DNA of 62,908 nt, the filler included. It is 5 parts of 5 records of this genome, joined end to end, with 100 filler letters (N's around TTAATTAATTAA, not from the genome) between each part and the next. Parts side by side here need not be neighbours in the genome. Positions count along the whole stretch, not along the records: positions 1 to 24,247 come from SRR20825010_2497; 4 more parts are not named here. One strand, 5' to 3'. Position numbers and translations under genes: made by a program. The stretch's first letter is position 1, and every line of letters starts with the position of its first letter. Below, in pieces: positions 1 through 12,669 of the stretch. Under the pieces are notes generated by a model. That model was not told the DNA's origin and did no database searches. It worked only from the letters and a program-made list of their open reading frames with translations.

Positions 1-705
1 TTCCTGCATGTGATAGCCGGAGATGGAGATCGAGTTGAACTTAGGCATATTCTCTGACGTATAGGAGAAGATGTCGGAAATGATCCGCATGGAAGGCGTG
101 GGCGGGAATATATAGGTGTTCCGCACCATAAATTCTTTGAGAATGTCGTTCTGGATTGTGCCCGCAAGCTTGTCTGGGCTCACACCCTGCTCCTCAGCTG
201 CAACAACATAGAGCGCAAGAATGGGCAAAACAGCGCCATTCATGGTCATTGAAACAGACATCTGATCAAGCGGGATACCGCTAAAAAGCGTGCGCATGTC
301 ATAAATGCTGTCAATCGCCACCCCTGCCATGCCCACATCGCCGACCACGCGCGGATGGTCACTGTCATAACCCCGGTGCGTAGCAAGATCGAATGCTACC
401 GAAAGGCCCTTCTGGCCAGCAGCCAGATTGCGGCGGTAAAAGGCGTTGCTGTCTTCCGCCGTTGAAAAACCTGCATATTGCCGGATCGTCCAGGGCCTTT
501 GCACATACATCGTCGGGTAAGGCCCCCTCAGGAAAGGCGCGATACCCGGCCGGGTATCAAGGAAATCGAGGTCTTTGACATCGTCTGCGTCGTAGCTTGG
601 CTTCAGGCTTATGCCTTCGGGCGTTAGCCAATCGCTGTCCGAACGGGCGGCCTCATTCGCAACAGCCTTAAAGGGAACTTGGGTAAAGTCAGGGATGCGG
701 CTCAT
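1..705 (-). CDS. scpA: Methylmalonyl-CoA mutase large (catalytic) subunit, 3' part outside window
   Basis: Manual translation from ATG 705: [80 protein letters not shown] overlap with the upstream small-subunit gene. Confidence 0.95.
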
Positions 706-2558
706 GACTTGCCTCCCAAAAGCTCATAGGCACGGGTAAGAGTGTCCAGCACGTCACAGCCCATATAGATCATTTCACCTACTCCTGCGGCCTCCAGTTT
801 TGTTGGGTCGCTCGGCCGACCGGCCAGATATATACGGCTACAGCCAGCCTCAATCAGCGCCTCTGCAGCTTCCAGTCCCAAACTTTCATACTGAGCGTCA
901 GAACCGCAGATCACCGCAAAAGGTGCCTCACTTGATGAATAGGCGGCCTTCAATGACGCCATGTCTTCAAATCCCTCACTCGGGATGGCTTCGATACCGC
1001 CTGCTTCAAAAAAGCTTCTGGCAAATGTGGCGCGAGCGGTAAAGTCGGCGGGGCTTCCCAAGCCCGCGATAAAGACGCGTGGGCGCATGCCGCCTTCTTC
1101 CAGCATGGCGTCACTCTTCAGGCGCAACACTTCAAACTCCTCTGCCAAACGATGAAACGGCAGTGGTGCGAGTGTTTCGCCTGCAGCCGGAATCTGAGAA
1201 GGAAGTGCGGGTTGTGGGCCGACATCCTTAAGGGGTTTTTCGTTAACATCAGGGAACTCAGATACCCCAGTGATAGCGTCCTTGCGCTTTGCGATATTCG
1301 AGCGACGCTCGCGCCATGACGCCTCAATATCTTTCACGAACGATCCTGATTTTAACACTGGCAATACGCCACCTTCAGATTCAATTTTCTGAAATAAACC
1401 CCATGCCTTATCGCATATCTCTGAAGTAAAAGATTCAATAGCGTAAGAGCCAGCCGCCGGGTCTGCCATGCGCGAGAGGCTGCTTTCATCCGATAAGATG
1501 ATCTGGATATTTCGGGCAATCCGGCGCGCTGACCGGCCACTCATACCCAGTAGCGTATCATGGGGCAGAACCGTGATCGCGTTTGCCCCGCCCACACCTG
1601 CAGCGAAACACGCGGCTGTGCCGCGCAGAACATTCACCCACGGGTCCTTGATGGTCAGCATCCTCAGGCTGGTAACAGCATTGATGCGTATGCCCGTGCC
1701 ACTATCAGCGCCACAGCTTTCAACCACACGGGCCCAAAGCCTGCGCGCGGCACGAAATTTCGCGATCCCGATAAAGATATCCGCGTCGGCAGCCAGGGTC
1801 ATCTCAACCGCAGCAGCGGCCGCCTGCACAGACATGCCTGCCGTCACCATTGCTCTCAAATACGAAACACCTGTCGCCAGCATCATCGCAAGTTCTTGCG
1901 CTTCTGTTGCACCGGCAATGTGATAAACACTCGCATCCACGTTAAAGGTTTTAATATCTTGGTAGGCGGTGTCAGATAGACGAGCCGCGATATTTGCAGC
2001 TTTCTCAAGCGCAATTTCAGCTTTGTCCTTCAGCCTGCCTGTTTGGGCAAGTGTCCCCAGCGGGTCCACGCCGAGAGTACCATTATATTCGGTGCCACCG
2101 TGCCCATCTGACTTGATAAGGCCTAACATGGCTTCCGCCACCTCTTCGAACTCCTCGCCAGGCATCAACTGAAAACGAGCCATATTTAGGTAAACACCGC
2201 TCAGCGCAGCATCCAAATCGCCAACCGCAAGACCCGGGAATGCGCCTGCCTGCATGCGGACAGCGAATGCGCTCGCACCGCGCTCGAGGTCTTCGAGAAT
2301 TTCAGCATTCACCCGCGCAGGATCATCGCTCCAATGCGGTGCTGTAATAAGCCACTCGCCATTTCGGGACGCAGGATGCGCTTCAATACGTGCGTTATCG
2401 CGAGTATATAGTGCTTCAATCGCGATGCCGTCGTAGGTTTTGCTACGCATGACCTTGTCAAACGGCTTGCCAGCCAGCGCCTTCTCCACCAATGCCATCC
2501 ATTGGGCGTCATCGGCGTGAGGGAAGTCTGCGGCAAGGTTCAGTTGTTTATCAGCCAT
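702..2558 (-). CDS. mutA: Methylmalonyl-CoA mutase small (non-catalytic) subunit
   Basis: [47 protein letters not shown] motifs. The C-terminal B12-like domain lacks DxHxxG. Translationally coupled to the large subunit. Confidence 0.9.
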
Positions 2559-2572
2559 CTTAATCCCTTTAC

Positions 2573-3379
2573 TCAAACAGCGGTGACGAGCCGCGCGGTC
2601 GCCAAAACAAGAAATAACCCGAAAGCAATGCTCAAAAGACGCTTCGGCAAACGATGGGCCACTTTAGCACCAACTGGCGCCATAATCACGGCGGCAATGG
2701 CCACAACCACAGCAGACGGCAGGTGGATGAAACCAGCAGAACCCGCAGGCATGCCCTCAACATTCCAGCCACCGAATAGGTACCCGAAACCGGCAGAAAC
2801 ACTGATCACTAGCCCTGCCAGAGCCGCCGTACCAACGGCGCGATGAATGGGAACACCGTAAAGCGTCATGTAGGGGACAGAGAAACTGCCGCCACCAATA
2901 CCCATCACCGCTGAGAAAAAGCCGATAAGCCCCGGCCCAAAAAACCGCAAAATACCGTTTGGCAGTGTCTCGCCAATGCGCCACCGATCCAGCGGCAGTA
3001 ACATCTTGGCGGCAAGGAAGGCCGCGAGCGTCGCAAAAAAATAAACCAGTTCCACGGTTTTCAGGGTTTTGGCAAAAAAGCTACCCAATATGGCGCCTAT
3101 CGCAATGGCCCACCACCAGTCTCTAACAATCGCCCAATCCACCCCACCCTTGCGGTTATGCGCCCAAACGCTTGAAAGGTTGGTGGCAATAATGATGGTG
3201 AGAGACGTGGCAATCGCGACATGCATGCGCCATTCAAGTGGCACATCAATTTCTGCATAGACAAGAAAGAGCGCCGGGATCGTAACGATACCGCCACCAA
3301 TACCCAACAGGCCAGCCAGAAAGCCCGCAACAAGTCCCGCACCAATAAGCGGTAAGCTATGCAACAACACCTGTTCCAA
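2573..3379 (-). CDS. TauE/SafE (TSUP) family membrane transporter
   Basis: Two repeats of GxxGIGGG (GLLGIGGG, AVMGIGGG), AIATSL and AVGTA motifs, hydrophobic throughout. TTG start chosen for its GAGGGAGGG RBS. Confidence 0.85.
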   Translation of the reverse strand: MEQVLLHSLPLIGAGLVAGFLAGLLGIGGGIVTIPALFLVYAEIDVPLEWRMHVAIATSLTIIIATNLSSVWAHNRKGGVDWAIVRDWWWAIAIGAILGSFFAKTLKTVELVYFFATLAAFLAAKMLLPLDRWRIGETLPNGILRFFGPGLIGFFSAVMGIGGGSFSVPYMTLYGVPIHRAVGTAALAGLVISVSAGFGYLFGGWNVEGMPAGSAGFIHLPSAVVVAIAAVIMAPVGAKVAHRLPKRLLSIAFGLFLVLATARLVTAV

Positions 3380-3564
3380 GTGGCCTTCCCTCCCTCTAAC
3401 ACAGATCACACTTTTTGTGCAGCGCGATAACGTTTGCCGCACTTTAGTGCAGTGCAGCAAAATCGCAAGAGAGAAAGGTTATGCTGTTTCGGATGTAGAA
3501 ATTCGCGAACGACTAACTATATTCCCCTGCAGGGGTTCATCAACAATAACTCTAACAAGGAACT

Positions 3565-4150: not shown

Positions 4151-5740
4151 TCACCCTTCCCGTTGCACGGTCTCATATGCCTGAAACGCGGTCCGGGCCG
4201 CATGCCGTTTTCGCAATGGGCTCGACAGATATCGGTTCAAGGCAGCAAGGACCAATTCACCCGTCTCTGCTTTCACGAGACCAACAAGCTTTTCGCACGC
4301 AAGGATCATCTTCAACCTGTGTACCGCAAAAATATACTCCCCCTCATCCATGTCGAAGAGACGGGTTTTATGGGTCTGCAAGAATTTATCTGGATCATCA
4401 ACTTTCCAGACTTTTATATCTTCTTCCCCGAGGAACGGTTTATTGCGCCCCACAAAACATGCGAGTTGCATCAAACCGGATTGCCATAGCGCCTCATCGC
4501 CTGATGCGTGGTGATGCACCGCTTCCGCGAAGGTCAGCGCATGGGTAAAATCAAGCCAGCCGATATTCTTTGCTATCGGTTGCTGCACGCCATTCTGCTT
4601 CTCGATGTCAAAATGCAGCATATTGAGGGCGCAAGCCGCCACAAGTGCGTCCCACGTATCCCGCTTGATCGCTGAGGAGGCCGCAGTGAGCGCCATGACA
4701 TGCCGCACACTCTGGCCTGACAAGTTTTCTGCGGCAGGAACAGGGGCCTGCCCTGGCTCCAGTTTGAGATAATCGGAAAAACCACGAAACTCAGGGATGA
4801 GGTCTTCCCTTGCGGCCAAACACAAGTAGCGTGCTATTTGCAACGAAAGCGTCTTGCTTACCTCCTCACCCAACCGGCCAATCAACTGCTCAGCCTTCAT
4901 GATATAAATGGCAGGATGCCCGAACCCGGCATAGTGGTTGAACACCACCTTGAGGAACAAGGGCTTAAGGTCATCAAAACCAAGCTCCGCACCATACGCC
5001 GCGCTTACGAGCGCTAGGGCCAGAGGCTGGTCCATCGCCTCAATGGCAACAACAAGCTGGTCCGGGTTCCAGTTAACCTTGCCGCCTTCCGTCGCTGGCC
5101 TCGCACTATACATACCGTCGTAGGAAAAATGGCCAAGCGCTTCGAGCAGGGCGACAGGCCGCTCCGCCGGATACTCATCAGTCATATCCAGCCAATCCAC
5201 CAGGCCAGCATGAGCGTGCCCAATGCCGCGCTCGAACTTCGGCAGGCTCCAGTTGATGATAAAGCTTGCGAGCTCGTTCACCTCCACACCCGCCACGTCA
5301 AGCCGCGCTATTGAGCGGGCTATGCGGGAATAATCATGCTCCGCGACTGCTTCATCAAGTTCTAGGAACGCTTTTTGGCGGCGCGCCTCAATAGGCTCGG
5401 GTGTTAGGTCTACCCAGATATTCTCCCCGCGGCGCTCGATGGGGTAGGTTTTCACCGCATCCCTGCCCTGTATCGCCTTGCCCGACTTCAAATCAAACGT
5501 CCACCCGTGCCAGTTGCAGGCGAGTTGACAGTTTTTCTTCAGGCTACCCTCGACAAGAGGATAGCCCTCATGCGGACACCGGTTGTAGATAGCATAGAGG
5601 CCGGATTCCGTCTCAAAGAGCGCGATCTGCCGACCGTCATGCTTTATGACAGCGCGACCTTTCTCTTTAAGGTCCGGAAAGCGACCCAGATTGACAAAAC
5701 CTTCATCGTCGGCAGTGATTTTTCCGTTTTGCGCACCCAT
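4151..5740 (-). CDS. Rieske [2Fe-2S] ferredoxin domain fused to a ~400-aa helical His-motif domain (questin-oxidase-like, inferred)
   Basis: N-terminal CPHEGYPL...CNWHGWTFDL Rieske motif. C-terminal GHAH, FGHPAIY, DFTHALT and VHRLK motifs. GAGGAG RBS. Confidence 0.8.
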   Translation of the reverse strand: MGAQNGKITADDEGFVNLGRFPDLKEKGRAVIKHDGRQIALFETESGLYAIYNRCPHEGYPLVEGSLKKNCQLACNWHGWTFDLKSGKAIQGRDAVKTYPIERRGENIWVDLTPEPIEARRQKAFLELDEAVAEHDYSRIARSIARLDVAGVEVNELASFIINWSLPKFERGIGHAHAGLVDWLDMTDEYPAERPVALLEALGHFSYDGMYSARPATEGGKVNWNPDQLVVAIEAMDQPLALALVSAAYGAELGFDDLKPLFLKVVFNHYAGFGHPAIYIMKAEQLIGRLGEEVSKTLSLQIARYLCLAAREDLIPEFRGFSDYLKLEPGQAPVPAAENLSGQSVRHVMALTAASSAIKRDTWDALVAACALNMLHFDIEKQNGVQQPIAKNIGWLDFTHALTFAEAVHHHASGDEALWQSGLMQLACFVGRNKPFLGEEDIKVWKVDDPDKFLQTHKTRLFDMDEGEYIFAVHRLKMILACEKLVGLVKAETGELVLAALNRYLSSPLRKRHAARTAFQAYETVQREG

Positions 5741-5819
5741 TTATCTTCTCCTCGCTTGCGTAACTCGGCCCTGATTTCGCTGTATTCGATCCATGCGAGT
5801 TCACGATTCATCGTGGCCT

Positions 5820-5899
5820 CCTTTTTCTAAAGAAATTTATTTAATAAATGTCATATATGATGCAGCTTGATTTATGCAATATATTTCTTTAGAAAAAGG
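5820..5899. promoter_or_regulatory. Two palindromic operator-like boxes TTTCT-N2-AGAAA (5824-5835, 5884-5895) in a divergent promoter
   Basis: 5820-5836 and 5883-5899 are perfect 17-bp inverted repeats. Each contains a self-palindromic core, and the cores are 60 bp apart. Confidence 0.7.
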
Positions 5900-5927
5900 C
5901 AATTGTAGTTTTAAAGTGAAAGCACCA

Positions 5928-6557
5928 ATGGGAACCACACGCGAAACCATCCTGACTGAATTGAAACGACGTGGGCATGCCCGTGCTGATGATCTGGCCA
6001 AAACGCTTGATCTGACAGCTATGGCGGTACGGCAACATTTGTATCAACTGCAGGACGAAGGTGCTGTTGTGTGTTGCACAAGCCCAAGCGGTCGTGGGCG
6101 CCCGGCAAAACATTGGGAATTAACGGAAAAGGCTGACGTCTATTTCCCGGATGCGCATCGCGAGCTCTCTCTCGACCTTATTGAAAGCATCCGCACACTT
6201 ATGGGTAAAGAAGCGCTTGATAAGCTTGTCGCGCACCGGACAGAGAAACAAGGCGAACGCTATCGCGCTGCCATTGGTGACGGAACACCGCTCAAAGCGC
6301 AGCTGCAAGCAATCGCCAAGGAACGCAGCCGCGAAGGATACATGGCGGAGGTACGTGAGGCTGGAGACGGAGACTTCCTGTTACTGGAGAATCACTGCCC
6401 GGTGTGCGAAGCAGCAAAAGCCTGTAGCGGCCTGTGCCACAAGGAACTGAGCCTTTTTCAAGACCTGATGAAAGACAAAGCAACGGTCGAACGAGAAGAA
6501 CATATCCTCTCCGGCGCCCGGCGCTGTGCGTATCGTATACATCCAAATTCAGATTAA
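5928..6557 (+). CDS. SufR-like HTH transcriptional regulator with C-terminal Cys cluster
   Basis: N-terminal HTH (AVRQHLYQL...GRGRP). C-terminal ENHCPVCEAAKACSGLCHKEL...EHILSGARRCAY typical of SufR-type regulators. Confidence 0.85.
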   Translation: MGTTRETILTELKRRGHARADDLAKTLDLTAMAVRQHLYQLQDEGAVVCCTSPSGRGRPAKHWELTEKADVYFPDAHRELSLDLIESIRTLMGKEALDKLVAHRTEKQGERYRAAIGDGTPLKAQLQAIAKERSREGYMAEVREAGDGDFLLLENHCPVCEAAKACSGLCHKELSLFQDLMKDKATVEREEHILSGARRCAYRIHPNSD

Positions 6558-6571
6558 TCGATAATTAGCTT

Positions 6572-7057
6572 CTAGCTCAAACGGGCCCGGATAGCTTTCA
6601 GCTCTGAAAGCAGTTCCTTGAGCACCTCTTGCTCTGCACCAATATCACAGGCTGGCTCTGTGTTATCGCTGTCGTCCGCGCTTTTTTGCTCAGGTACTGG
6701 CTCAGTGCTGGTTGTGGTCGCGGAAGTCGCACCAATGTCATCCTCAAGGCCTAATGCTTGTGCGACGGTTGAACGTAGCCCCTGCGCCTTGAAAAGCTTC
6801 TGCACACCTTTGATCGTATAACCATCCGAATGCAGTAGAGCCTTGATCGCCCGCAACAGCACAACATCGTCCGGCCGATAATATCGGCGGTTGCCACCAC
6901 GCTTCAACGGCTTGATTTGTGAAAACTTGCTTTCCCAAAAGCGCAGAACGTGCTGCGGCAGATCAAGCTCGTCCGCAACTTCAGAAATTGTCCGAAACGC
7001 CTCGCGACCCTTCTCGCCGCGCGGTCTATCCTGACCGTCGTCTGCTGGCATACTCAC
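6572..7057 (-). CDS. MerR-family HTH regulator (conserved ihfA neighbour)
   Basis: [23 protein letters not shown]...RRYYRPDDV...GYTIKGV. Confidence 0.9.
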
Positions 7058-7076
7058 GCCCTACCCCTCCTGCACA

Positions 7077-7367
7077 TCAAGCGTTGATGTGATCTTTCAT
7101 CACTTGGCTTGGGCGGAAGACAAGAACCCTGCGCGGGTCGATTGGCACTTCTTCACCAGTTTTTGGGTTACGGCCCATACGGCCATTTTTCTGGCGCACC
7201 AGAAAGCTGCCAAAAGAGGAAATCTTGACGTTTTCCCCCGCAACCAGGCAATCAGAAACCTCACCGAGAACGGCTTCAACGAGGTCGGCAGACTCGTTTC
7301 GCGAGAGGCCTACCTCTTCATAAACCGCTTCTGTCAGGTCTGCACGGGTAAGTGTTTTTTCACTCAT
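7077..7367 (-). CDS. ihfA: Integration host factor alpha subunit
   Basis: TLTRADL...VKISSFGSF...[24 protein letters not shown]. Confidence 0.95.
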
Positions 7368-7538
7368 ATCTGCCTCCGCTGCGTGTACGCCCCTGAGGTC
7401 GGAATGGGGCTCTAGCTAAAAAGGCTAGTCGAAGCGAAGCGGGCTGTCAATCTAACAGCAAGCGTTTAGCCTTTATTTTGAATGGTTTACAGACCTTCGT
7501 TGACACAAAACGAGACATTTTCACCACAAATGTAGCAT

Positions 7539-8591
7539 TTATGCCGCGCCGACGGTCTCTGCATCCGTTGAATCTGCAGGGATTTGCTCAAGGTCTTCGC
7601 TGATGAGGCGAATCAGATCATTCTGCGCCATATCGATTGCGGAGGTCACCGCAGAAGCAAAACCGTGCGCATTCGCACCACCATGGCTTTTCATCACCAG
7701 CCCATTGAGCCCAAGGAAAACACCGCCATTATGGTTGTTGGGATCAAGATGGTCCCGAAGCGAACGCAAACCGTGCCGGGACAAGAGATACCCAAGCTTG
7801 GTGGAAATAGAGGACCGGAACGCACGACCAAGTAATTCCGTCATCAGGCGCGCTGTTCCTTCCGCCATCTTGAGCGCCACATTGCCTGTGAAGCCGTCTG
7901 TAACCACAACATCAACAACGCCTGCCCCGATATCGTTGCCTTCAACAAAACCTGTGAACTGGAGTGGCAAGTGCTCAGAGGCACGAAGCACCTCCGCCGC
8001 CGCACGAATACTGTCTTTGCCCTTGAGATCCTCAACACCTACGTTCAGGAGCGCGACTGTAGGGTTTGAGAGCCCGAGCACGGTACGGACGTAGGCCGCG
8101 CCCATAATTGCAAACTGCACAAGGTTGTTGGCGTCGCATTCCACATTTGCGCCGAGATCAAGCATCACACTTTCACCCCGCAATGTTGGTAGCGGTGAGG
8201 TTAGTGCAGGCCGGTCAATACCCGGCATGGTCCGCAGGATAAACTTGGCAAGTGCCATCAGCGCCCCTGTGTTCCCGGCCGATATTGCAACATCAGCTGA
8301 CCCATCTTTCACAGCCTGCAACGCAAGCCCCATGGACGAATTTCGGCCACGCCGAAGCGCCTGAGATGGCTTCATGTCGCTGGTGACGACATCATCGGTA
8401 TGGAACACTTCACTGGCTGCGCTCAGTTCTTTATGAGCCTCAAGAAGCGGTTTTATCCGCGCCTCATCACCATAAATGTGAAAACGAGTTCCTGGAAATA
8501 GTGTGCGCGCCTGCGCGATGCCTTCAATGACCATGTCTGGTGCATGGTCGCCCCCCATGGCATCGACTGCGATCGTTACTTCTTTTGCCAC
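7539..8591 (-). CDS. plsX: Phosphate acyltransferase PlsX
   Basis: IAVDAMGGDHAP, SAGNTGALM, LDLGAN, DVVVTDGFTGNVALK, KSHG. Confidence 0.96.
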   Translation of the reverse strand: MAKEVTIAVDAMGGDHAPDMVIEGIAQARTLFPGTRFHIYGDEARIKPLLEAHKELSAASEVFHTDDVVTSDMKPSQALRRGRNSSMGLALQAVKDGSADVAISAGNTGALMALAKFILRTMPGIDRPALTSPLPTLRGESVMLDLGANVECDANNLVQFAIMGAAYVRTVLGLSNPTVALLNVGVEDLKGKDSIRAAAEVLRASEHLPLQFTGFVEGNDIGAGVVDVVVTDGFTGNVALKMAEGTARLMTELLGRAFRSSISTKLGYLLSRHGLRSLRDHLDPNNHNGGVFLGLNGLVMKSHGGANAHGFASAVTSAIDMAQNDLIRLISEDLEQIPADSTDAETVGAA

Positions 8592-8709
8592 GAATTATTA
8601 TCCAATCTCAAACGTTGGCCCGTGTCTTTATTATACGTGAGATGTGACAGGTAACAAACCTGACACAATTACCCTACTTGGGCAGACCATAGCGAATTTA
8701 ACAGCTACT

Positions 8710-9258
8710 TCAAGATTCGTCGCGTAGCTTCTCAAGAACAGCAAACGGGTTCGGTCGCTTTTCTTCGGGCTCGTTTACGGAGATTCCCTCTTTATTATCA
8801 AGGCTTAGCTCTATACCTTTAGCTCTTGGATACGGGTCCATATTGATTGAAAGTGTTTGTGCGATGATCTCGCCGAGAGGGATTTCCTTGCCCTCAAGAG
8901 CATCATATTCCGGTGCGTTTGGATCAAGATAAACTTCTTCTTCGTCCATACGGTCAGCCATCTCTGGGTCAACCAGCATCAGGGTAAACTCTGTCTCAAG
9001 CTCTTCCGCCACAGGCTCAAGCGTCACCACACAGCGCTGGGTCAACGCAGCTCTAAGCGTGCCAGATATAAAAATACCTTGGGCTTCGCCGCGGTCCTTG
9101 ACCTCAAAATCCGCCCGAAAGCCCGCGATATCGACGAGATCAAACCGTTCCGTTAATGTAGCGCGCTCTGCCTCACTTGCTTCAAAGCTATAGGCTCGGC
9201 CTGTGCGTTCTACCTCGTCCACAGTCAGGACAAAACCGAGGGAAATTTTACTGCTCAT
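8710..9258 (-). CDS. YceD/DUF177 family protein
   Basis: QRCVVTLEPV, DPYPRA and NPFAVL motifs, in the usual position upstream of plsX. Confidence 0.85.
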   Translation of the reverse strand: MSSKISLGFVLTVDEVERTGRAYSFEASEAERATLTERFDLVDIAGFRADFEVKDRGEAQGIFISGTLRAALTQRCVVTLEPVAEELETEFTLMLVDPEMADRMDEEEVYLDPNAPEYDALEGKEIPLGEIIAQTLSINMDPYPRAKGIELSLDNKEGISVNEPEEKRPNPFAVLEKLRDES

Positions 9259-9282
9259 GTTCTTATCCTTCCGAACTGTCTA

Positions 9283-9837
9283 TCAAGTCCCTGAAACACC
9301 CAAGCTAGCCTCGGGAGCGGGGAATTCAAATACTACTTCTTGCATCTCACTGAGCCCACAGGCCTGCAAACCCTCATGGGCAGCCAGCATATAGGCTGCC
9401 ATATGAGGCGCCTTTGAGGCCTCTTCCCGCTTATACAGGTTGCGCCGAATGGCCTCTGTTAGCGCGCCCTGCACATCTTCTTCCTCAAGTGCGGCACCAT
9501 ATGCCTTTAGGCGCCCAAACCAGGCAACACCCATTTTTTTGACCTCACGGCCAATACCCATGTCACCCACGCCCATCTCACGAAGCGAGCGGTCCATGTC
9601 TGCAATCATCGCTTCTTGTAACTGCTGCCGCAGTTTTGCTGTCTCGCTGCCGTCTTTTCCAAGGCGGTTCTGAATCAGGAACATATGCATGAGGATCATG
9701 TCGAAACGACCATCGAGCGTATCCTCGACTTCAAAGTCCGTATAAAAGGCCGGATGACGTGCCTGTTCAACAAGCTTGCTATACAGTTTATACGCAATCT
9801 TTTTACTCGCCATACCTGCGAACAAACGCCCAAACAT
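9283..9837 (-). CDS. Ubiquinol-cytochrome c chaperone (Cbp3-like)
   Basis: QARHPAFY...DTLDGRFDMI...DMDRSLREMGVGD. GGAGGA RBS before ATG 9837. Confidence 0.88.
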   Translation of the reverse strand: MFGRLFAGMASKKIAYKLYSKLVEQARHPAFYTDFEVEDTLDGRFDMILMHMFLIQNRLGKDGSETAKLRQQLQEAMIADMDRSLREMGVGDMGIGREVKKMGVAWFGRLKAYGAALEEEDVQGALTEAIRRNLYKREEASKAPHMAAYMLAAHEGLQACGLSEMQEVVFEFPAPEASLGVSGT

Positions 9838-10014
9838 GTCCTGTCCTCCAAATCGCCGTAATCTGCTTTTAAGGCAAAAACAGCCCACTATTGGTGTGCG
9901 CCGAGCTGATAAATCGCCGTGGCTCTAACACGGAGCCTTGCGCCATGCAATGGTGGCGGTTATTAAGGCAGTGGCAAGTTTTGATCCGCAAGCGACGGAA
10001 AGTAGGTTTACACG

Positions 10015-10506
10015 ATGACGACACGATTTAAAGCCCGCACTTCTACCCCTGTTTTACTGTGCGTTGCAGCGGGCTTGGCCCTTTCTGCCTGTGGTAATGG
10101 CCGCATGGTCCGCGGCTATGTTTTTGACAAACAGCTCGCTGACGCCATCCAGCCAGGCGTTGATAACCGGCAGTCGGTAGAATCAACGCTAGGCACCCCA
10201 ACCGTTCGCGCGGCCTTTGATGAGAACAGATGGTATTATGTGTCAACCACGGTTCGCGTACGCCCTGTCTTCTGGCCCGACCCGAAAGAACACCGCGTGA
10301 TGGCTGTTGCTTTTAATGACAAAGGTGTCGTTACCGACGTTGAAAACTTTGATCTCAGCCATATGCGTAGTGTTGACCCTGTAGGCGATAAAACGCCGAC
10401 GCGCGGCCGTGACCTCAATTTCTTCCAGCAGATTTTCGGTAACGTTGGGCGATTCTCTGGCTCCGCCCCTGTTGGTTCCGGCCCAACCCGCGGCCCGAAC
10501 GGCTAA
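10015..10506 (+). CDS. bamE: Outer membrane protein assembly lipoprotein BamE
   Basis: Lipobox LSAC, then LGTPT...WYYVS...TPTRGR...QQIFGNVG. Confidence 0.9.
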   Translation: MTTRFKARTSTPVLLCVAAGLALSACGNGRMVRGYVFDKQLADAIQPGVDNRQSVESTLGTPTVRAAFDENRWYYVSTTVRVRPVFWPDPKEHRVMAVAFNDKGVVTDVENFDLSHMRSVDPVGDKTPTRGRDLNFFQQIFGNVGRFSGSAPVGSGPTRGPNG

Positions 10507-10530
10507 TCGCCTCGCATAAATCAGCAATAG

Positions 10531-10564
10531 AAAAAGCCCCGGCAAAACCGGGGCTTTCTTGTTT
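10531..10564. terminator. Bidirectional intrinsic terminator between bamE and hppA
   Basis: AAAAAGCCCCGG-CAAAA-CCGGGGCTTTCTT. Confidence 0.85.
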
Positions 10565-10581
10565 GGGCATATGCCCTGACT

Positions 10582-12669
10582 TTAGTGCGCCAGCATCGCC
10601 AGCAGCAGCAGTGCCACGATGTTCGTGATCTTGATCATCGGGTTCACAGCCGGGCCCGCAGTATCCTTGTATGGGTCACCAACGGTATCACCGGTCACTG
10701 CAGCTTTATGAGCCTCAGAACCTTTACCACCGTGGTTGCCATCCTCGATATATTTCTTCGCGTTATCCCACGCACCGCCACCTGCGGTCATGGAAAGCGC
10801 CACAAAGAGGCCGCCAACGATCACACCAAGAAGGAGCGCGCCGAGGGCTGCAAACGCAGCTCCCTGCCCTGCAATAGCGTTGATCACATAGTAGATGATG
10901 ATCGGTGCCGCCACAGGCAGAAGGCTCGGAACTACCATTTCCTTGATTGCCGCTTTGGTCAAAAGGTCTACTGACCGTGCATAATCAGGCTTGGAGGTGC
11001 CCGCCATGATACCTGGATTTTCACGGAATTGAGCCCGAACCTCTTCAACAACCGCACCACCTGCACGACCAACAGCCATCATACCCATGGCGCCGAACAG
11101 ATACGGCAACAAAGCACCGATAAACAGCCCGACGACCACATAGGGGTTGGATAGGCCGAAATCGACCTCCACATGGCTGAAGTAGGTATTAAGGTCAGCT
11201 GTATAAGCGCCGAAGAGCACAAGTGCAGCGAGACCAGCAGAACCGATAGCATAGCCTTTGGTTACCGCTTTTGTGGTGTTACCAACAGCGTCCAGCGCAT
11301 CTGTACGGCCACGGACTTCATCGTCAAGACCGGCCATTTCCGCAATACCGCCCGCGTTGTCGGTAACCGGGCCGTAAGCGTCAAGAGCCACAACCATACC
11401 CGCAAGTGCAAGCATTGCTGTTGCCGCGAAACCAAGGCCAAGGATACCTGCAAAGTTATAGGCAACGATGATGCCCGCGCAGATAACAATGGCAGGCAGC
11501 GCCGTTGCTTCCATGGATACAGCAAGCCCCTGGATAACGTTTGTACCGTGGCCCGTCTCAGATGCTTTCGCAATAGACCGTACCGGGCGATACTCTGTGC
11601 TGGTATAATACTCCGTAATCCAGATGATCAGACCCGTTACCACGAGGCCCACGAGACCGCAGTAATAAAGAGCTTTACCGGTGAACACCGTAGCGCCTGC
11701 CATAAACTCTTTGTCCATGGCACCGCCAAGTGCCCAATCCATAGCAAACCACATGACAATCGCTGAGGTAACAGCGGTCACAACAAAGCCCTTATAAAGC
11801 GCACCCATGATGGACTGGCTTTTACCAAGCTTCACAAAGAAGGTGCCAAGAATAGAGGTCAGGATACAAGCGCCACCAATGATAAGCGGCAACTGCATGA
11901 TCTCTGCGGCCCCAGACGCAATGAACAGTGCCGACAGCACCATTGTTGCACCAATGGTCACCACATAGGTCTCAAAGAGATCAGCCGCCATGCCTGCACA
12001 GTCACCAACGTTGTCACCAACGTTATCAGCAATAACTGCGGGGTTACGCGGATCATCCTCTGGGATACCGGCTTCTACCTTGCCAACAAGGTCTGCACCT
12101 ACGTCAGCGCCTTTGGTAAAGATACCGCCGCCGAGACGAGCAAAGATGGAAATCAGCGACGCACCAAACCCGAGCGACACCAAACCATCAATCACCGGAC
12201 GTGCTGTCGGCTCAATACCCATTGGGCCAATCAAAATATAATAATAGCCCGCAACCGCGAGAAGCGCGAGGCCCGCAACGAGCATCCCGGTGACTGCACC
12301 AGAACGGAACGCCAAGGTCAGGCCTTGCTGCAAGCCAACACTGGCCGCTTGCGTCGTGCGTACGTTGGCTTTCACAGAGATCAGCATGCCAATATAGCCT
12401 GCTACACCGGAAAGCACCGCACCGATAACAAAACCAAGCGTGGCAAGCATGCCTAGCGCGAGGAACAAGCCAATCGCAACCACAACACCAACAACGGCGA
12501 TAGTTTTATATTGCCTGTTCAGATAGGCCTGCGCGCCTTCCTGAATGGCTTTGGCGATTTCCTGCATTTTTTCGCTGCCCGCGTCGGCAGCTAGAATAGA
12601 CTGACGCGTCACAATACCGTAAAGGACGGCCGCAACACCGCATCCAAGCGCGGCGTACAATACTACCAT
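10582..12669 (-). CDS. hppA: Membrane-bound H+-translocating pyrophosphatase (K+-independent type)
   Basis: [48 protein letters not shown]. Confidence 0.96.

Follow-up and report, generated by a model that had tools for sequence, protein, structure and literature searches.

The window analysed here, a 62,908-nucleotide stretch of joined genome parts in whose positions all coordinates are given, carries on its minus strand (4151..5740) a single open frame of 529 codons plus stop. We regard the encoded protein, with moderate confidence, as a non-heme iron oxygenase that is fed by its own Rieske domain, binds iron through four His residues and one Lys in carboxylated form (4-His/carboxy-Lys), and is induced by redox stress. 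This assignment builds on a two-domain architecture in which a Rieske domain precedes an all-helical domain, on the invariance of the residues that would bind the metals, on a match of the helical domain to the fold of the BTG13/questin-oxidase dioxygenases, and on the linkage of the gene to Fe-S redox sensors and their operators.

What does the protein consist of? The Rieske [2Fe-2S] domain (residues 12-114; 5399..5707, minus strand, as are all features of this protein) yields the sole Pfam match (PF00355, residues 22-99, E 2e-16). Its ligands lie in a CPHEG and a CNWH box at 5507-5578, comprising C55 (5576-5578), H57 (5570-5572), C75 (5516-5518) and H78 (5507-5509); the codon coordinates of all motifs noted here were verified by script. 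For the rest of the chain, residues 115-529 (4154..5398), Pfam gave no match at E ≤ 1. NCBIfam returned just matches of the Rieske-ferredoxin type, each under its own cut-off, leaving the helical domain unrecognised, and sequence searches of the PDB with the 529-residue protein or with a 40-sequence profile found Rieske proteins only and none matching the helical domain. A first reading of this DNA made from the sequence alone (the sequence-only reading) had proposed an N-terminal Rieske domain that is not followed by a ring-hydroxylating catalytic domain. Both halves of this proposal hold: the Rieske assignment agrees with Pfam, and the ring-hydroxylating domain is absent from the Pfam and NCBIfam matches of the protein, its place being taken by helices. 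AlphaFold2 modelled the full-length chain with a pLDDT of 92.8 and a pTM of 0.89, and the helical domain folded alone, which is all-helical, with 94.9 and 0.93.

With the full-length model, the Foldseek list was filled by Rieske proteins only. With the helical domain alone, the top six rows were wild-type BTG13 and two of its mutants, the AflY-like dioxygenase 8yxs, and PaD twice (E 0.013-0.31, prob 0.85-1.00, TM 0.42-0.49), before a fall to prob 0.11 and TM 0.16 at rank 7. The modelled helical domain thus has the all-helical fold of BTG13, and the relationship suggested in the sequence-only reading came through the comparison without any unrelated fold appearing, as BTG13, the AflY-like enzyme and PaD were the only whole-domain structural matches. 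Look-alikes in the ESM Atlas scored 0.80-0.84 at best, which is under the useful range; clusters without a name took the first three ranks, and the one cluster with a name was of Rieske proteins.

A finer comparison was made through the bacterial members of PF14027 (DUF4243), the questin-oxidase family. True bacterial PF14027 proteins were gathered, and their profile matches BTG13 in the PDB, the alignment fixing the ligand numbering: BTG13 H55 (GHNH) corresponds to H30 of the bacterial proteins, H158 (YHPLI) to H122, H296/T299 to H235/T238, and H374/K377 to H312/K315. When our two-clade alignment A4 (106 sequences at 22-39% identity to the 529-residue protein) was compared with this profile by hhalign, H400-x-x-T403 fell on HxxT and H474-x-x-K477 on HxxK (Prob 11%, E 0.0028, 105 columns), and the C-terminal halves gave the same register at Prob 56.8% and E 1.1e-4. 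At these modest alignment probabilities of 11% and 57%, the protein appears to carry the HxxT...HxxK signature of questin oxidases, that is, ligands 3 and 4 with their Thr and Lys.

In BTG13 the iron is held by four His, the carboxylated Lys377 and a water, with Thr299 hydrogen-bonding the carbamate, such that T299V abolishes carboxylation (PMC12173810); the PaD ligands are H63, H166, H317, H394 and K397 (PMC11371914). The candidate counterparts in our protein are H175 in a G-x-G-H motif (GHAH; 5216..5218), as ligand 1 and equivalent of BTG13 H55; H275 in G-x-G-H-P-x-I (FGHPAIY; 4916..4918), as ligand 2 and equivalent of H158; H400-x-x-T403 (FTHALT; 4532..4543), as ligand 3 with the putative carbamate-holding Thr, compared with H296/T299; and H474-x-x-K477 (VHRLK; 4310..4321), as ligand 4 with the Lys expected to be carboxylated, compared with H374/Kcx377, Kcx denoting the carboxylated form. 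The last two pairs follow the hhalign register. H175 and H275 are invariant and collinear with H55 and H158 at similar spacing, and H275-P-x-I resembles H158-P-L-I; the alignment of the N-terminal halves gives no equivalence, so that for H175 the correspondence comes from collinearity alone. Ligand spacings run 100/125/74/3 in the 529-residue protein, 103/138/78/3 in BTG13, 103/151/77/3 in PaD and 92/113/77/3 in the bacterial PF14027 proteins; the offsets to BTG13 are monotonic across the structurally aligned range, and HP.I, HxxT and HxxK are local motifs common to BTG13 and our protein. From collinear spacing, local motifs and the register of the last two motifs we infer that the four His and K477 converge on one site, in which iron would be bound and K477 carboxylated.

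The proposed metal-binding residues are kept throughout a large family. A word-indexed search with the 529-residue protein returned 1140 proteins at E ≤ 0.001 among 7998 candidates scored, and scanning exhaustively by HMMER with only the helical domain as query yielded 429 cluster representatives at E ≤ 0.001. Among the proteobacterial relatives listed, 120 of 120 carry PF00355 in chains of 514-764 residues; their names go no further than 'Rieske (2Fe-2S) protein', and most of the named ones come from Kordiimonas and other Alphaproteobacteria. Two seemingly stand-alone helical domains were considered and rejected: P0170 is a fragment beginning in the linker, and P0261 probably has a mis-called start, since 118 of its 120 listed relatives, of 510-618 residues, are Rieske-bearing. 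P0261, which has 715 relatives at E ≤ 0.001, the named ones from Acidimicrobiia/Actinomycetota, marks a second branch. At least two deep clades therefore exist, one proteobacterial and one of Acidimicrobiia type, and the Rieske fusion is obligate in both; its presence in 120/120 and 118/120 listed relatives argues that it is also old. The distribution is patchy, with 4 of 401 sampled Pseudomonadota genomes positive, each from a different family and one of them (G384) unpublished.

In alignment A1 (40 sequences, 39-78% identity to the 529-residue protein) the Rieske ligands, H175, H269, H275, H400, T403, H474 and K477 are invariant. Counted over 175 full-length members, H175, H275, H400 and I278 are found in all, H474 and H269 in 173, K477 and T403 in 172, and each Rieske ligand in 174. 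The 21 invariant columns of A4, which spans both clades, are C55, P56, H57, G65, C75, H78, G87, R142, G172, H175, H269, G274, H275, I278, P316, L396, H400, T403, A407, H474 and K477. Judged on sequence, the His/Thr/Lys motif set is thus far beyond chance. The conservation of the His and Lys residues, which the sequence-only reading had made a point on which its proposal could fail, is borne out by both the 175-member counts and the two-clade alignment. The four His motifs it had named are located where it placed them and are conserved, except that the second His of GHAH (H177) is kept in just 77 of the 175.

Two residues that are invariant in both clades have no ligand counterpart in BTG13: H269 (4934..4936), a His that the sequence-only reading did not mention, and R142 (5315..5317). 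They are candidates for a role in an electron-transfer path or in substrate binding. H269 also bears on the nature of the metal site, as the likeness of fold could be real and the site nevertheless different, with another metal or a Kcx-bridged two-metal centre drawing on H269 together with E170, D182, E200 and E312, and with hydrolytic or otherwise non-oxygenase chemistry. Two-metal sites of four His and a bridging carboxy-Lys are a classic feature of amidohydrolases, the fifth invariant His and a number of highly conserved acidic residues are unmatched among the BTG13 ligands, and the sequence alignment places only two of the four His. Still, a hydrolase would have little use for a Rieske domain, and the order and spacing of the ligands as well as the Thr partner match the mononuclear BTG13 site, so we give a different site little credence.

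How would electrons reach the iron? H57 and C75 are separated by 17 residues, and the first Rieske box (CPHEGY) has a single Cys and no second one, so the protein lacks the Cys pair that forms a disulfide in high-potential bc1-type Rieske proteins. The closest relatives of the domain are free ferredoxin components rather than oxygenase alpha subunits. The sequence-only reading had considered a self-sufficient enzyme, which was an overstatement, because the protein has no reductase domain and cannot be fully self-sufficient. The nearest genome (G001), which has the same locus, contains four Rieske genes and, unlinked, a single ferredoxin reductase with a Reductase_C domain. A complex prediction of the Rieske domain with the helical domain, including Fe and 2Fe-2S and run without alignments, scored 0.09 (mark 0.34) and indicates nothing either way.

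We thus propose that electrons from NAD(P)H would pass through an unlinked ferredoxin reductase to the low-potential, ferredoxin-type Rieske [2Fe-2S] cluster and from there, within a chain or between chains, to the 4-His/carboxy-Lys iron. This iron would be held by H175, H275, H400, H474 and carboxylated K477, with T403 holding the carbamate. It would activate O2, and an organic substrate would be oxidised or cleaved. The protein would then be a Rieske-dependent oxygenase on a scaffold other than that of the classical Rieske oxygenases, and its expression would be set by a dedicated, divergently encoded Fe-S redox sensor, which is SufR-like here and SoxR in other lineages.

The regulator next to the gene in the window is a winged-helix protein with five conserved Cys, encoded on the plus strand (5874..6557, likely true start at ATG 5928) and divergent from the Rieske gene. 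It aligns with the SufR model TIGR02702 over its full length (1-208 of 208; E 4.3e-35); since it reaches 121.3 bits against an equivalog cut-off of 178.8, it is a SufR-like paralogue and not SufR proper. Of 28 aligned sequences, 27-28 keep C175, C178, C184, C188 and C218. Across 80 genome loci of the family the SufR-like regulator is the sole recurrent neighbour, lying directly upstream in 34, as detected by hidden Markov model, on the opposite strand in 33 of these and on the same strand in L071. Among 80 metagenome loci, which supply the context of the Acidimicrobiia-type clade, it is upstream and divergent in three to four (L096, L097, L114 and, in part, L098, where the contig ends).

The divergent control region (5820..5899) contains a 30-nucleotide inverted repeat with arms at 5820-5849 and 5870-5899, which are 90% complementary, and sites of the type TAAAG-N6-CTTTA. 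SufR-linked intergenic regions have two such sites, one of them merged with CTTG-N7-CAAG, and they recur in loci from Kordiimonadales, Thalassospira, Kiloniellaceae, Rhizomicrobium and Gammaproteobacteria. Within the window the pattern is found a single time. Searched genome-wide in G001, the site-1 operator pattern gave 34 matches against 20 for the control at one mismatch, of which only the cognate site was convincing. We therefore rejected a wider regulon, and the regulator looks dedicated to the Rieske locus.

This exclusiveness bears on the thought that the protein might be no enzyme but a sensor of redox or iron status, or a factor in handling or repairing iron or Fe-S clusters within a SufR-type regulon. 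SufR proper controls Fe-S assembly genes, the neighbour is SufR-like, and the protein would carry two metal sites. An operator that is convincing only at the cognate locus of the nearest genome, however, points to a local regulator and not to a suf regulator. The Thr-Lys-His constellation that is kept is that of a catalytic site (PMC12173810), and other lineages have SoxR as the sensor, which is known to act on redox enzymes and pumps (PMC4146615). A role outside catalysis is, in our judgement, very improbable.

For the preferred assignment as a redox-stress-induced oxygenase, these other lineages provide a second line of evidence. A SoxR gene lies upstream and divergent in 19 of the 80 metagenome loci as recognised by the Cys motif (20 by clustering) and in 2 of the 80 genome loci (L047, L077), hence in 21 of 160. 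Such a neighbour (e.g. L118) scores 192.2 bits against the cut-off of 116.9 of TIGR01950, and the cluster motif CIGCGCLSLxxC is present in 19 of 20 aligned SoxR neighbours, the twentieth being ended by its contig. The promoters facing the Rieske gene are of SoxR type, with TTGAC, a palindrome such as TTCAAGTGCACTTGAA or CCTCAACATTACTTGAGG, and then a -10 box; in L118 the spacer measures 19 nucleotides and an ATG follows within about 10 nucleotides downstream. An overlong spacer is a hallmark of the MerR family. By all these sequence features the neighbour is a genuine SoxR, and the promoter is a canonical SoxR-box promoter. Different lineages have thus brought one gene together with two unrelated Fe-S redox sensors, SufR-like here and SoxR elsewhere. 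Some SoxR boxes (L047, L077, L155) read TTAAAG-TTAA-CTTTAA, with half-sites near those of the SufR-type TAAAG-N6-CTTTA and a spacer of 4 versus 6 nucleotides; this likeness could be coincidence or the trace of a regulator replacement.

Control by Fe-S redox sensors implies that the enzyme would be produced in response to oxidative or redox-cycling stress. The SoxR targets of Pseudomonas aeruginosa and Streptomyces coelicolor, which are governed by way of phenazines or actinorhodin, are few, namely pumps and redox enzymes that include a monooxygenase, a quinone oxidoreductase and a flavoprotein reductase; outside the enterics, SoxR regulons are described as small, made up of transporters and redox enzymes that deal with redox-active metabolites (PMC4146615). 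The likeliest substrates would be redox-cycling quinone, hydroquinone or phenazine-type compounds, because the characterised relatives in fold act on hydroquinones and the gene is tied to sensors that respond to redox-cycling stress. That the substrates are redox-cycling quinoid compounds is probable, yet it is the weakest link of the proposal.

The same regulators would also suit a reductase for a small oxidant such as superoxide, peroxide or nitric oxide, in which the Rieske cluster would serve an iron with four His and one anionic ligand and no organic substrate would be involved. Such a protein would be a functional analogue of the two-iron superoxide reductase, which has a site of four His and a Cys; the Rieske gene forms a single-gene unit without pathway neighbours, and OsmC-like genes are nearby in 3 of 80 loci. 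Yet we found no relation in fold or sequence to known superoxide, peroxide or nitric oxide reductases, the known fold family binds aromatic substrates, and a domain of 415 residues with many invariant non-ligand residues suggests a substrate pocket, all of which makes this an improbable function.

Several points weigh against an oxygenase with its own Rieske donor and a BTG13-type site. At E 0.013-0.31 and TM 0.42-0.49 the Foldseek scores are modest, which indicates a structural core in common with the BTG13 family in an otherwise much different domain. PF14027 matches none of 47 members, neither the 529-residue protein at E ≤ 1 nor 46 diverse relatives at E ≤ 10, while the same model recovers true bacterial members elsewhere (3 of 301 genomes). 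In hhalign, the N-terminal halves gave no support against the bacterial PF14027 profile (Prob 0.2%), A1 reached Prob 0.24% against bacterial DUF4243, and a 175-sequence profile of the C-terminal domain reached 0.5% in a wrong register; the global and low-mact modes likewise ended in wrong registers. H53, a residue of BTG13 for substrate binding and proton transfer, has no conserved counterpart, position 177 being variable. The 80 genome and 80 metagenome loci show no consistent linkage of the Rieske gene to a reductase or to a catabolic operon. Finally, when the sensor tally is limited to loci with at least 900 nucleotides upstream, 87 of 144 carry neither sensor: of 75 genome loci 34 have the SufR-like gene, 2 SoxR and 39 neither, and of 69 metagenome loci 3, 18 and 48, respectively. 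For the helical domain we conclude that it is a remote, structurally supported relative of BTG13 with the full set of proposed ligands, outside PF14027 as defined.

A further point is that the role of the Rieske domain is not given by homology, because BTG13-type enzymes work without an electron donor. In the accounts of BTG13 and PaD the substrate supplies the electrons, and the relatives characterised there are all hydroquinone dioxygenases (PMC12173810, PMC11371914). Our protein might be such a cofactor-independent, ring-cleaving hydroquinone dioxygenase, with the Rieske domain re-reducing oxidised iron or converting a quinone into the cleavable hydroquinone. The former task is known from XylT-type ferredoxins, which re-reduce the accidentally oxidised iron of catechol dioxygenases; moreover, SoxR/SufR-like control suits quinone stress, and no reductase is genetically linked. 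However, practically all members, over two phyla, possess the Rieske domain, which argues for a core catalytic rather than an accessory role, and the substrate-contacting loop of BTG13 around H53 is not conserved. A dioxygenase of this kind is unlikely.

A Rieske-fed oxygenase remains our preferred reading. Its most far-reaching form is that the family constitutes another class of Rieske oxygenases, the second to be assembled and independent in origin, in which a BTG13-type helical domain with a 4-His/carboxy-Lys iron stands as catalytic module in place of the classical 2-His-1-carboxylate domain, and which acts as dedicated effector of SoxR/SufR-type Fe-S sensor circuits in marine Proteobacteria and Acidimicrobiia by destroying or modifying redox-cycling quinones or phenazines; we put this forward tentatively, as a possibility rather than an expectation.

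The surroundings of the gene in the window give no hint at a pathway. On one side lie a convergent cupin gene and genes for TauE and methylmalonyl-CoA mutase, on the other the divergent regulator of 227 amino acids, a MerR-family gene, ihfA and plsX. The regions 1-3460 and 6572-12669 are housekeeping in character, including methylmalonyl-CoA mutase subunits, a TauE-family exporter and the MerR-family gene, which adjoins ihfA; from their translations we take nearby genes to be ihfA, plsX and those of a YceD-like protein and a proton-pumping pyrophosphatase. Conserved metabolic neighbours were considered and rejected, as no such gene recurs consistently; TauE, methylmalonyl-CoA mutase, plsX and ihfA represent Kordiimonas synteny.

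Upstream, a small open reading frame of 55 codons (5644..5811, minus strand) with a strong ribosome-binding site of its own, AAGGAGG, overlaps in the -1 frame with the start of the main one. Of the 11 Kordiimonadales loci (L001-L011), 10 keep its N-terminal stretch of ~22 residues (xxELAWIEYxxIRxEL) while the codons change synonymously, the peptide of L010 being similar and missed by the pattern; it is absent from the SufR-linked loci outside Kordiimonadales. It may encode a leader peptide or a small protein.

Other branches of the family have other neighbours. In an alphaproteobacterial subclade (L012, L018, L035, L038, L073) the Rieske gene is divergent from ccmABC, as checked by Pfam for L012 and L035 and for CcmA alone in L038; downstream follow a BCCT transporter and a GcvT-like protein (L035, L038), a pirin (L012, L035) and a flavin mononucleotide reductase (L012). 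At the Acidimicrobiia-type loci, genes for short-chain dehydrogenases/reductases, 2-oxoglutarate oxygenases, amidohydrolase_2, SRPBCC and luciferase-like proteins are found. Some sensor-free loci (L016, L042, L070; metagenome loci in the range L096-L175) adjoin enzymes of the type acting on aromatics or heterocycles, including amidohydrolase_2, a molybdopterin hydroxylase, a luciferase-like monooxygenase, SRPBCC, a 2-oxoglutarate oxygenase and a short-chain dehydrogenase/reductase; synteny between closely related genomes may lie behind their counts.

What would be new in such an enzyme? To our knowledge, 4-His/carboxy-Lys iron has so far been seen only in stand-alone dioxygenases without an electron donor, mostly from fungal biosynthetic pathways, and the site was reportedly first described in 2022. 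In the searchable literature, which leaves subscription journals and bioRxiv supplements outside, no paper contains both 'questin oxidase' and 'Rieske', and a literature search on Rieske together with 4-His and carboxylated lysine gave nothing relevant. The word 'Rieske' occurs nowhere in the BTG13 review (PMC12173810) or the PaD paper (PMC11371914). The remark in the sequence-only reading that no enzyme of this architecture has been characterised is thus in line with what this literature describes. In our estimation, the type of iron site and the fold are known, whereas an obligately Rieske-fused, sequence-distinct family in a new regulatory context is new; by sequence search it has over a thousand members, for which Pfam and NCBIfam offer no model beyond 'Rieske protein'.

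If our reading is correct, it would widen the range of non-heme iron coordination chemistry and add a second route to an oxygenase of the 'Rieske plus mononuclear iron' kind. As a compact system of two domains, the protein would allow one to study the tuning of O2 activation by a carbamylated Lys under an external electron supply, and the combination of external electrons with a Kcx-ligated iron could allow chemistry seen in neither parent family. The SoxR regulons of poorly studied marine lineages would gain a new type of enzyme, and the pairing with SoxR and SufR-like sensors provides a testable physiological handle, namely induction by redox-cycling compounds.

How does the protein relate to known systems? 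The alpha subunits of Rieske non-heme iron oxygenases, such as the naphthalene, carbazole and carnitine oxygenases, likewise have an N-terminal CxH...CxxH domain followed by a domain for mononuclear iron, which in our protein is a predicted one. The weak sequence matches to alpha subunits in the PDB are confined to their Rieske parts, and whereas the catalytic domain of the classical enzymes is rich in beta structure and holds a 2-His-1-carboxylate site, that of our protein is all-helical and has four His and a Lys. Rieske-type ferredoxins (the naphthalene dioxygenase ferredoxin 2QPZ, T4moC, BphF, CarAc) are free shuttles of 100-110 amino acids, while here the ferredoxin-like domain is covalently tied to its presumed acceptor. 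With the 'questin oxidase' dioxygenases BTG13, GedK, AflY, PaD and OzmD (PF14027; PDB 7Y3W, 8YXS, 8Z4Q) the protein has in common the order of the His residues, similar spacing, HxxT and HxxK, at an identity of about 10%. The listed PF14027 proteins are, however, single-domain proteins of 323-420 amino acids, whereas the Rieske family is always Rieske-fused; BTG13 H53 and H58 are not conserved in it, and H269 is its extra. Its members are bacterial single genes associated with redox sensors, while the characterised questin oxidases belong to secondary-metabolite pathways, mostly fungal. In regulation, finally, the closest parallels are the SoxR-regulon monooxygenases PA2274 of P. aeruginosa and SCO1909 of S. 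coelicolor: the canonical SoxR-box promoter, divergent from soxR, at 21 of the 160 Rieske loci resembles such small regulons of redox enzymes and pumps (PMC4146615). The protein family is an unrelated one, however, and the sensor in the window is SufR-like, not SoxR.

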